This document shows positions 9,235 through 12,200 of a stretch of DNA of 64,000 nt, one piece after another. Location: assembly GCA_016179055.1 (NCBI GenBank), contig JACOSC010000258.1, forward strand, positions 2,833 through 66,832, written 5' to 3'. The notes beneath the pieces are model-generated. The model was not told the origin of the DNA. It was given only the letters and a program-made list of their open reading frames with translations, and did not search any database. Positions within the stretch are counted from its first letter, which is position 1. Every line of letters starts with the position of its first letter. The translations under genes were made by a program, and so were the position numbers. The stretch is from Acidobacteriota bacterium (GTDB lineage Bacteria; Acidobacteriota; UBA6911; JACOSC01).

Positions 9235-12200
9235 TTATCGTGCCGGGTGTCCTGCCGTGCAATTAAGCAAGTCAAGAACCTCTAGCAGTTCCGCTACGAC
9301 CTGGAGTTCGTTTTCTCCCGAACTGGTGAGAATGATTGGCTCAAACTCTGGATTCACAGGACGCAGGACAATCGTTGTGTGACGCCAACTGTCGCCATCT
9401 CCGGTTTTCTCGCTCTCGTACCGCTTACCGGTGTATCGTTCGCCGCTCTCCGGATCGATGGCGTCGCGTAACTGAACGAGCACGATCTTGCCTTGTCGGG
9501 TGCCTGCCACCGGCGAACTGAAGAGGCAGTAAGCGGAATCGGGGATAGCCGGTTCCATTGACTTGCCCACGACCTGGGTGACGAACATCCCCGGGCGGAG
9601 TTTGCGTCGAGTTCCTGGTTCTACCCATCCCTCAGGTTCCACGCTCTGGACGTCGCCGAAACTCCCCGCAGCGACCTTGAGCGTGAGGAGCGGAACGCAC
9701 GTCCGGTATTTGTCATGCTCTTTCGGCATAACGCGCTGGAAGGGTGGGACGGCCGTCCGCTGTGAGTCGAGCGCAGGCACCCCTTCTTCCACCCAGTCTT
9801 TACAGAGCACCTCTGCTTGTTCCAGAACCAATTGTGTGGCGCGCTGCTGCATGTCCGGCGGGTAGCCGAACTCTCGAAGGATCCGCTTGATCAGAACGCG
9901 GATCTGCGCTCGCGCGTTTTCACGGACTTGCCAGTCGATGGATACGCTCTGCTTCACGCGCTCCACGAGCTTTTGGGCAAGGAAACGGAGCTTCTCGTCG
10001 CCCATCACCGCGCGGGCGCTTTCGTTTTCGGCGAGCGCGTCGTAGAAAGCGACCTCGTCGTCCGTGAGGCCGAGCTCCTGGCCGCGTACCTTGGCGTTGC
10101 GGATATCCTTGGCGATCTTGATGAGCTCGTCGATCATCTGGGCCGCCGCGATGGCCCGGTTCTGATACTTGCGGACGGCCGTCTCCAGCATTTCGGCGAA
10201 GGAGCGCGCCTGGACGACGTTCTTTCGCATGTGCGTCCTAATTTCGTCGTTTATAAGCTTCTTCAAAAGCTCCAGCGCCAGGTTGCGATGCGGCAACTGC
10301 CGGACCTCGGCGAAGAATTCGTCCGACAGAATGGATATATCGGGCTTCTCAAGCCCGGCGGCCGCGAAGATGTCCACGACCTCCGTCGAGTAAACCGACC
10401 GCGATACAAGCTGGCGAATAGCGGACTCCAGCTCGTCCTGGGTTCTCTCGGACTCGGATAAGGTCGCCTTGACCAAAGCCGACCGTATCTCTTGGAACAC
10501 ACTGACCTCGTCCCGTATGGAAAGCGCGCGCAGGTGAGGGACGGCAAGCGCGAACGCCTTCGACACGGCGGAAACAGCCTGGAGATACCGCTTCTTGCCG
10601 TCCTCCAAGCCCAGTATGAGCTCCATGGCTTTGGCGATGGCTCCCATGCGTTTCCCGGCTTCAGTCGTCAGTATGCCCTTGTAGTCGTAGCCGTGGAGCA
10701 TGTCACGCACGACCTCGTACTTCTCCATCATGACCTTGACGGCCTGCCCCTGATCGAGAGTCGCCTTGCCCGCCGCTGGTTGTGTAGGTATGCAACGCCC
10801 GCTTGAGCGCGTCGGCGATGCCGAGGTAGTCCACCACGAGGCCGCCGGGCTTGTCATTGAACACGCGGTTCACGCGGGCGATGGCCTGCATGAGGTTGTG
10901 TCCGGTCATCGGCTTGTCCAGATACATCGTGTGCAGGCTCGGGCAGTCGAAACCGGTCAGCCACATGTCGCGCACGATGACGAGCTGAAGCGGGTCGCCG
11001 GCAGCCTTGAACCGCTTGGCGATGGCTTCCCGCGCTGCCTTGGTCCGGAAATGCGGTTGCCAGGACGGATCGTCCGAAGCTGAACCGCTCATCACGATCT
11101 TGATCGCGCCCGTGGCGTCGTCCTCGGCGTGCCAGCCCGGCCGCAGCTTGGTGATCGCGTTGTACATCTCGACGCAGATGCGCCGCGACATGCACACCAC
11201 CATGCCTTTGCCCTGCATGGCCTCGGCGCGCTTCTCGAAGTGATCGACGAGGTCCTGGGCCACCAGCCCGATGCGCTTCTCCGTGCCGACCATGGCCTCA
11301 AGGGCCGCCCACTTCGTCTTGAGCTTGTGCTTCTCCTCTTCTTCCTCGCCCTCGGTGATCTCCTCGAACTCCGGGTCGATGTGAGGTTTTTCTTCCTCGT
11401 TGAGTTCGAGCTGGGCCAACCGGGACTCGTAGTAGATCGGCACGGTCGCGCCGTCCTGTACGGCCAGTAGTATATCGTACTTGTCGATATAGTCGCCGAA
11501 GACGGCGGGCGTGCTCTTGTCGCTCAGCTCGATGGGCGTGCCGGTGAACCCGACGAACGAGGCGTTGGGCAGGGCGTCGCGCAGATACTTCGCCATGCCG
11601 TACTTAACTTCGCCGCTTTTATTGTCGAGCTTGGCGCTGAAGCCGTAGTGGCTGCGGTGGGCCTCGTCGGCGATGACGACGATGTTGTGGCGCTCGCTCA
11701 GAGCGTCGCCGCCCTCGAATTTCTGAAGCGTGGTAAAGACGACCCCGCCGGAGGCGACCCGCAACAGGTTTTTCAAGTGCTCGCGGCTGTCGGCCTGCTC
11801 GGGTTTCTGTCGGAGGAGGTCGCGGTTGACGCTGAAGGTCCCGAATAGCTGCTCGTCGAGGTCGTTCCGGTCGGTGATGACGACCAGTGTCGGATTCTCC
11901 ATCGCCGGGTGCTTGATGATCTTCCCGCCGTAGAAGGCCATGGAAAGGCTCTTTCCCGAACCCTGCGTATGCCACACGACGCCGATCCGCCGGTCGCCCT
12001 GCGGGCGGCTGGCCGCGACCGTGCATTCGACGGCTTTGTTCACCGCCCAGTATTGGTGGTAGGCGGCGGCCTTCTTGGCGATCTCCTTTCCGTTGTCCTC
12101 GAAGGCAATGAAGTTCAGCACGTAGTCGAGAAAGCGCTGCCGCTCGAAAACGCCCTTGACCAGGACTTCGAGCTGCACGGCCCCGGCCGAAGCGAGATCC

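Follow-up and report, generated by a model that had tools for sequence, protein, structure and literature searches.

The gene for the restriction subunit, hsdR, of a type I restriction–modification (R–M) system was analysed within a 64,000-nucleotide stretch of DNA from an Acidobacteriota bacterium (assembly GCA_016179055.1, contig JACOSC010000258.1, positions 2,833 to 66,832; hereafter the window). Past the normal C-terminus of HsdR the same reading frame continues into a tail that is a genuine LexA/UmuD-type S24 peptidase module, as judged by its Pfam match, its modelled fold, its Ser/Lys pair and its Ala-Gly site. The fusion of HsdR to S24 is real and no artefact. Far from being confined to HsdR, the module is a shuffled cassette found at the C-terminus of restriction and defence enzymes of at least six classes, and occasionally within them. 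This widespread and strongly conserved cassette has apparently gone undescribed, as full-text literature searches, with subscription-only literature outside their scope, returned no paper on fusions of S24 to restriction enzymes. The fusion had first been proposed in a reading of the letters by a model that ran no database searches (the sequence-only reading), which called the route of regulation that it suggests uncharacterised.

An S24 module in frame with HsdR

The C-terminal third of hsdR, and merely that third, is encoded by a 540-amino acid (aa) open reading frame (ORF) at 9235..10857 on the minus strand, in which the Pfam domain T1RH-like_C (PF11867) spans residues 29-353 (E 1.3e-128). 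The PADLOC model of type I restriction endonucleases (REase_I, 1029 positions) stops at residue 354, and the sequence ...CKDW is therefore regarded as the normal end of HsdR. From here the frame stays open for 185 codons, where the sequence-only reading had counted 181, until a stop codon at 9235-9237. Peptidase_S24 (PF00717) is matched at residues 394-523, scoring 26.0 bits when the whole ORF is searched and 29.8 bits (E 5e-7) with the tail by itself, and both values exceed the gathering score of 23.3. An S24-like domain containing GKSMEP and YTGKRY, as had been proposed, is thus upheld by a significant profile match and by structural matches to LexA, cI and UmuD. Within a collection of 5.8 billion proteins the tail has 720 relatives at 60-73% identity, which puts the S24 match far beyond chance, and 49 of the 54 longer relatives also match PF00717. 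The parts of the gene, which is split into two ORFs by one frameshift, are as follows.

10703..12898, minus strand: N-terminal part of HsdR (nuclease and superfamily 2 (SF2) motor), 731 aa, last 25 codons out of frame; HSDR_N, SWI2_SNF2, T1R_D3-like and ResIII matches
10769..10771, minus strand: GGG run with one extra G, the single frameshift in hsdR; tblastn frame switch and repair test
9799..10773, minus strand: HsdR C-terminal domain (T1RH-like_C), in frame with S24; PF11867 and PADLOC REase_I positions 700-1024 of 1029
9742..9798, minus strand: variable linker from the HsdR end ...CKDW to the S24 module; unconserved among homologues
9274..9741, minus strand: S24 (LexA-type) module; family conservation (alignments A1 and A2), PF00717, AlphaFold (AF2) and Foldseek, with coinciding DNA-level cassette borders
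9664..9669, minus strand: predicted scissile bond Ala45-Gly46 of the tail (KVAA↓GSF); conservation in 102 family members
9559..9561, minus strand: predicted nucleophile Ser81 (GKSMEP); 101 of 102 members, aligned to the Ser of LexA GDSM
9424..9426, minus strand: predicted general-base Lys126 (TGKRY); 101 of 102 members, aligned by hhalign to the Lys of ATVKTF in the LexA of the window

The module of the window comprises ~155 residues and runs FQRVMP...VVGKSMEP...VVAELLEVL. Among 102 family members Ser81 and Lys126 are each retained in 101 and, as the sequence-only reading had it, they correspond to a catalytic dyad, aligning with the Ser/Lys pair of LexA in hhalign. A site of the Ala-Gly type, which that reading had suggested looking for, is predicted at KVAA↓GSF, with the Gly 35 residues before the Ser. 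The surrounding positions are conserved to a similar degree (L41 in 99, A44 in 99, A45 in 99, G46 in 98 and F48 in 101 of the 102 members), and the P3-P1 residues before the predicted cut are A/V/I-A-A. In Escherichia coli LexA the spacing between Gly85 and Ser119 is 34 residues.

A search of the PDB with the single sequence of the tail gave no match and profile matches were weak; structure prediction was therefore needed to assign the fold. In the profile alignment to PDB chains, the Ser of GKSM falls on the Ser of GDSM in Mycobacterium tuberculosis LexA. An AF2 model built on the alignment of 102 relatives had a mean predicted local distance difference test score (pLDDT) of 87.8 and a predicted template modelling (TM) score of 0.81, with a pLDDT of 66-71 over the first 20 residues of the tail, which form the linker. 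When this model was searched with Foldseek, ranks 1-37 were all LexA, lambda cI or UmuD (best E 1.4e-5; target-normalised TM score up to 0.73), with signal peptidases far behind.

A direct comparison is provided by the window, which also encodes a bona fide LexA.

37134-37760, plus strand: LexA, 208 aa (LexA_DNA_bind and S24; RVAAG...GDSM...TVK); domain search

The identical LexA protein is present in metagenome runs SRR12113389 and SRR12113413, and the presence of a true LexA indicates a host organism with an SOS system. Aligned with hhalign, the module and this LexA share 38% identity over 86 columns (E 3e-6), with GKSM placed on GDSM and TVKRY on TVKTF, and the cleavage-site stretch of the module mirrors IPVISRVAAG of the LexA. 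Two cysteines conserved in the module, C35 (TCVPL; 9697-9699) and C92 (YCLF; 9526-9528), have no counterpart in the window LexA; conservation reaches at least 90% for C92 among the 102 members and for C35 among the 15 close ones.

The module thereby shares with LexA, cI and UmuD (MEROPS S24, PF00717) the fold, a Ser-Lys pair in G-x-S-M and T-V-K-R contexts, and a predicted (A/V)-A-A↓G cleavage-site region ~35 residues ahead of the Ser. Unlike these proteins it has no N-terminal DNA-binding domain. The LexA_DNA_bind winged helix is absent from the fusion, T1RH-like_C alone is found upstream of the module in Pfam, and the partner is a restriction or defence enzyme of ~1000 aa. Members form a tight subfamily of their own, with 60-85% identity to one another against ~20-25% to LexA structures, and differ from LexA by an extended beta-hairpin (RYTVKRYESEK...GDSWRH) in addition to the two conserved Cys. 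No NCBIfam or PADLOC model covers this subfamily.

The N-terminal ORF of hsdR matches TIGR00348 with 611.7 bits and PADLOC REase_I with 878.6 bits (model positions 5-701), and across the two ORFs the HSDR_N nuclease, the SF2 motor and the C-terminal domain of an HsdR are all found. The closest relative of the window HsdR, from a metagenome-assembled genome of Hydrogenedentota (L074; 85% identity over the N-terminal part), is intact and carries HSDR_N, SWI2_SNF2, T1R_D3-like, T1RH-like_C and Peptidase_S24 in one frame of 1208 aa. When this orthologue is aligned to the window by tblastn the frame changes at ...YTTSGG, and deletion of one G at 10769-10771 restores a single open ORF of 1220 aa, without other defect. 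The two products of the split gene, of 721 aa and 498 aa, recur in a Logan assembly made independently from run SRR12113389, where no repaired HsdR protein was on record. Given that the Logan assembly carries the identical split, the frameshift is in the reads and is not an assembly artefact. A sequencing error at the junction, which the sequence-only reading had named as grounds for giving up the fusion, is excluded by the existence of intact in-frame orthologues such as L074, and the frameshift is located ~1 kb upstream of the HsdR-S24 junction rather than at it.

A cassette on many restriction and defence enzymes

The sequence-only reading had called for a survey of helicases and HsdR proteins, and the same fusion was indeed found on two HsdR families, on ResIII helicases and on further enzyme classes. 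Searching a library clustered at 50% identity yielded 1788 representatives at E<=1e-3, of which 156 reach E<=1e-30. When one genome per species was scanned with two short peptide patterns from the module (trimmed alignment A2), 394 loci were confirmed, which puts the module in at least 394 species genomes; the best 80 of these loci were used for the locus-level analysis of hosts. In ~47 of these best 80 loci the module ends an uninterrupted host ORF of 1000-2050 aa, while the remainder are mostly cut by contig ends or lie in error-prone long-read assemblies. Of 232 proteins, 227 have the module no more than 25 residues from their C-terminal end. Its hosts comprise two HsdR families, Type ISP enzymes, MmeI/Eco57I-type methyltransferase-nucleases, ResIII helicases, Schlafen-group-3 (DUF2075) helicases and PLD, HNH and LlaJI nucleases, as well as giants of ~1900-2050 aa that combine DEAD, Helicase_C and MZB domains. 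HsdR-type hosts account for 52 of the best 80 loci and Type ISP hosts for 10, and nearly all host domains are of restriction or defence types. Confinement of the module to short or broken proteins was considered and rejected: the best 120 of the 720 database matches are all 330 aa or shorter, yet most host ORFs at the genome loci are intact, at ~1190-1360 aa. The impression of short proteins is a sampling artefact of short contigs, an N run and error-prone long-read assemblies.

At the DNA level the borders of the cassette are sharp: similarity sets in with the P-F-R-P-R-I-V-E-P codons and runs to E-V-L-G, usually followed by a stop within a few codons. Its DNA is 75-85% identical across unrelated host genes in unrelated phyla. 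The nearest neighbour of a module is on another host class in 26 of 66 cases, mean module identity is the same within and between host classes, and the rate of synonymous substitution (dS) is ~1.2 both within and between them, with a ratio of non-synonymous to synonymous rates (dN/dS) of ~0.13-0.15. The low dN/dS and the lack of host-class structure point to strong purifying selection combined with many graftings onto different enzymes. A minimum dS of ~0.5 between host classes gives no sign of very recent jumps.

The cassette is not confined to C-terminal ends. In two members of the HsdR family of the window, L073 (7044-10682) and L037, the module is located between the Q motif and helicase motif I, and the sequence at the junction of this internal insertion reads ...RKTGVTPFRPRVVRP.... 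Internal copies have one Ala-Gly site, on the N-terminal side only. Origin as a mobile element or intein was also considered and rejected. The inserted or appended segment contains only Peptidase_S24, no Hint or endonuclease domain and no conserved flanking sequence beyond the module were found, and the phage collection held no copy of the module.

C-terminal cassette exchange occurs in Rhs and contact-dependent inhibition (CDI) polymorphic toxins. The S24 cassette appears analogous to these in being a domain-sized piece of DNA with sharp borders, found at the 3' ends of unrelated genes and without host-class structure. It is unlike them in encoding a regulatory protease instead of a toxin and in lacking an immunity gene, and the host genes showed no conserved recombination motif. 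Clustering of the neighbourhoods of the 80 loci, noisy owing to shadow ORFs from high GC content, revealed no conserved module-specific partner gene beyond hsdM, hsdS and ORFs named by eye, namely HNH nucleases, a large helicase and an ImmA/IrrE-type peptidase next to a small ORF.

Several variants of the fusion were observed alongside these results. In some Type ISP fusions (P0135, P0127, P0147 and L036:4401-9044) the S24 module is followed by an extra conserved region of ~150 aa, apparently a two-repeat domain in which AIRELA..LGY.R.G..V...LDN.L..AVRRGVL occurs twice and for which Pfam gave no match; cleavage at the Ala-Gly site would free this domain along with the module. The second HsdR family (HsdR-B) carries S24 in L012, L014, L018, L028, L034, L042 and L056. 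The last 1.8 kb of HsdR-B-S24 genes, ending at the stop codon, are 84-94% identical at the DNA level across Gammaproteobacteria, Binatia and Terriglobia, which points to recent movement of the gene between phyla. In P0091 and L021:7701-8456 a short N-terminal host stub, with a P-loop ATPase or a type IIG/ISP-like start, runs straight into S24, and the two stubs look like in-frame deletions of the enzyme body in which the module was kept. An ORF at ~6000-7140 of L075, a putative transposase, splits a Type ISP-like S24 host gene. In the cultured isolate Halomonas sp. PA16-9 (L084; NZ_CP040452.1, 1652274-1652702) a distant module of 39% identity lies directly after a DUF2075/Schlafen-type helicase ORF, in another frame, and would be a possible experimental handle if that frameshift is a sequencing error.

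The type I locus of the window

The genes upstream of hsdR in the operon, together with those between them, are listed below.

12870-15437, minus strand: IetS (S8 protease); PADLOC 1103 bits over the full length, Pfam Peptidase_S8
15437-16444, minus strand: IetA (AAA ATPase); PADLOC 498 bits over the full length, Pfam AAA
16451..17749, minus strand: hsdS specificity subunit; PF01420 Methylase_S
17739..18965, minus strand: YhcG/DUF1016 PD-(D/E)xK nuclease gene inside the operon; PF06250, PF17761 and PADLOC candidate PDC-S02 with 490 bits
19390..19593, minus strand: hsdM remnant, a 67-codon ORF; tblastn of the intact HsdM of L073

The hsdM remnant joins ~37 N-terminal residues (MAKQKK...AEYKHV) to ~30 C-terminal residues, with the body of the methyltransferase deleted in frame. 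In the tblastn search, residues 1-43 and 502-525 of the L073 HsdM match next to each other in one frame, and no second hsdM was found within the window. With hsdM deleted and hsdR frameshifted, the system is left without methylation and restriction; the local type I R–M system is defunct and its hsdR-S24 is a relic. Of 47 conserved columns, the S24 module of the relic departs from the family at 3, where the other members have a median of 2. Relaxed selection on the module was accordingly rejected, there being no detectable decay, and the inactivation of hsdR, and with it of the local type I system, is probably recent. The pseudogene state, the deletion of hsdM and the spread of the module beyond HsdR, the last being the more interesting fact, had all been overlooked by the sequence-only reading.

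The IetA/IetS defence pair sits between hsdS and hsdR, and both of its genes look intact, unlike the surrounding type I genes. Between the hsdM stub and hsdS are a four-helix protein of the 23S-rRNA-IVP family and the YhcG-type nuclease (17739-19390, minus strand). The block of R–M and Iet genes at ~9000-19000 has a GC content of 58-63% compared to 45-55% in its flanks, consistent with a horizontally acquired island. Elsewhere in the window, the ORF at 24496-27906 (minus strand) encodes a large protein with TPR and CHAT protease domains in Pfam, and that at 38332-40797 (minus strand) has TPR-like repeats and resembles it by appearance; both may be further conflict or signalling proteins.

Proposed role of the module and alternatives

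The reading we favour, and to which we give roughly an even chance, is that of a self-cleavage off-switch, in which the S24 autoprotease on HsdR and the other enzymes acts as a built-in means of restriction alleviation, or a brake on autoimmunity. Going by conservation, Ser81 and Lys126 would cut the Ala45-Gly46 bond of their own module as in LexA. By analogy, filaments of RecA on single-stranded DNA (ssDNA), a signal of host chromosome repair, may stimulate the cut, and the cut would turn the enzyme off. In C-terminal fusions the cleaved enzyme would then end in ...L-K-(A/V/I)-A-A-COOH, similar to a ClpX signal, and might be delivered to ClpXP. In internal insertions such as that of L073 the cut would separate the nuclease domain from the motor. 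Neher et al. in 2003 are said to have described an N-terminal LexA fragment ending in ...VAA.

Cleavage of LexA exposes latent ClpX signals (PMC10584840), and the new end predicted for the fusions would be of the same type, with the difference that it would be carried by a large multidomain enzyme, not by a small repressor domain. DNA damage in E. coli brings about restriction alleviation through degradation of HsdR by ClpXP (PMC4231737; PMC3874165). The proposed switch would resemble this EcoKI-type alleviation in its target, the motor-nuclease subunit HsdR, in the use of proteolysis, and in its presumed purpose, protection of the chromosome at times when the repair of damage creates unmodified sites. 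It would differ in that E. coli HsdR has no built-in protease and ClpXP recognises the translocating enzyme, whereas here the S24 domain is inside the polypeptide. Damage-triggered autoproteolysis as a route to restriction alleviation, as raised in the sequence-only reading, is plausible. The off direction is favoured because cleavage of a module inserted before motif I would part nuclease from motor, because type I systems respond to DNA damage by alleviating restriction (PMC3874165), and because the ...AA end expected after cleavage resembles the ClpX signal of the LexA fragment.

A wider form of the proposal is tentative, and we hold it with distinctly less confidence than the off-switch itself. 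It takes the horizontally shuffled cassette as a general kill switch for restriction and defence nucleases that would sense RecA filaments; breaks from self-restriction would lead to activated RecA, which would prompt the cut and expose a ClpX degron. This form covers type I, Type ISP and MmeI/Eco57I-type enzymes and ResIII, DEAD-MZB and Schlafen-type helicases. RecBCD loads RecA at Chi sites. If RecA filaments mark breaks in self-DNA more than they mark phage DNA, the brake would therefore be self-specific, although a self-specific brake through Chi-dependent loading of RecA is speculation.

Several points weigh against the off-switch. The copy in the window cannot function, as its hsdR is a pseudogene. 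Self-cleavage, RecA dependence and the link to ClpX are all things that we infer, and the placement of the Ala-Gly bond at the active site is predicted from sequence alone. When a profile of 102 relatives was compared to the PDB it matched solely LexA, UmuD and cI chains, and these weakly (E 0.03-0.9). Loss of a C-terminal appendage need not inactivate an enzyme, which leaves the off or on direction unsettled for the C-terminal architecture. Finally, the MmeI/Eco57I-type hosts and those combining a methyltransferase with HNH are no translocases, and the parallel to type I alleviation may be too narrow for them.

The opposite direction, in which the fusion is a pro-enzyme, is unlikely but deserves the most weight among the alternatives. 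The S24 module would here keep the enzyme inactive or unassembled until it is activated by cleavage, in the way that UmuD is converted to UmuD', the trigger being either RecA filaments formed on replication or recombination intermediates of the phage or some other cue of infection. The same conserved catalytic pair and Ala-Gly site would serve this role, and the UmuD precedent is among the structural matches. In type I enzymes the HsdR C-terminal domain docks onto the methyltransferase core, and a module hanging on this domain could block assembly there. The insertion before helicase motif I in L073 is a better fit to inactivation, since cleavage at that position would break the motor. Switching on a nuclease prone to self-cutting during repair of the chromosome would moreover be hazardous, and the known response to damage is alleviation of restriction, not its enhancement (PMC3874165).

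A role without self-cleavage is improbable. Under it the S24 fold would be a dimerisation module, or a module for docking onto RecA filaments or ssDNA, that localises the enzyme or couples two of them. The C-terminal domains of LexA and cI dimerise, and control of oligomerisation had likewise been proposed in the sequence-only reading. Cleavage by type I and Type ISP enzymes follows the collision of two translocating enzymes (PMC3553963; PMC3553950). The retention of Ser, Lys and Ala-Ala-Gly, each in 98-101 of 102 members, would be unexpected for a purely structural domain.

The chance is slightly smaller again that the module acts in trans, cutting a phage protein, a partner subunit or a LexA-like repressor instead of, or besides, its own linker. 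UmuD can be cleaved intermolecularly, which sets a precedent, and the locus contains other protease-based defence genes (IetS). The module nevertheless has a canonical cleavage-site region of its own at the canonical distance from the Ser, and the neighbourhood clustering lacked a conserved partner specific to module loci beyond hsdM, hsdS and the HNH nucleases and ImmA/IrrE-type peptidases seen by eye. A local artefact, in which an error of sequencing or assembly would have attached an independent gene, or junk, to hsdR as its tail, has next to no probability and is refuted for the fusion itself: the hsdR of the window does carry a frameshift, many database matches are short fragments and hosts are fragmented in several long-read assemblies, but the frameshift is ~1 kb away from a junction that is in frame here, in intact orthologues and in dozens of other genomes, and the independent assembly is identical in sequence.

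The way in which bacteria protect their chromosome from their own restriction and defence nucleases is well understood for few model systems, such as the ClpXP alleviation of EcoKI. The S24 module is spread over hundreds of species from numerous phyla, on six or more classes of enzyme, and a regulatory domain that acts as a shuffled cassette is unusual. If the off-switch reading is true, a self-cleaving sensor of SOS type that forms part of the effector would solve the problem of nuclease self-damage differently and more simply, and would provide a testable link between RecA filaments, proteolysis and the control of immunity. The module could possibly be used as a portable damage-responsive off-switch for engineered proteins. 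On the wider form of the proposal, it would be a mobile regulatory domain that evolution grafts onto any dangerous nuclease.

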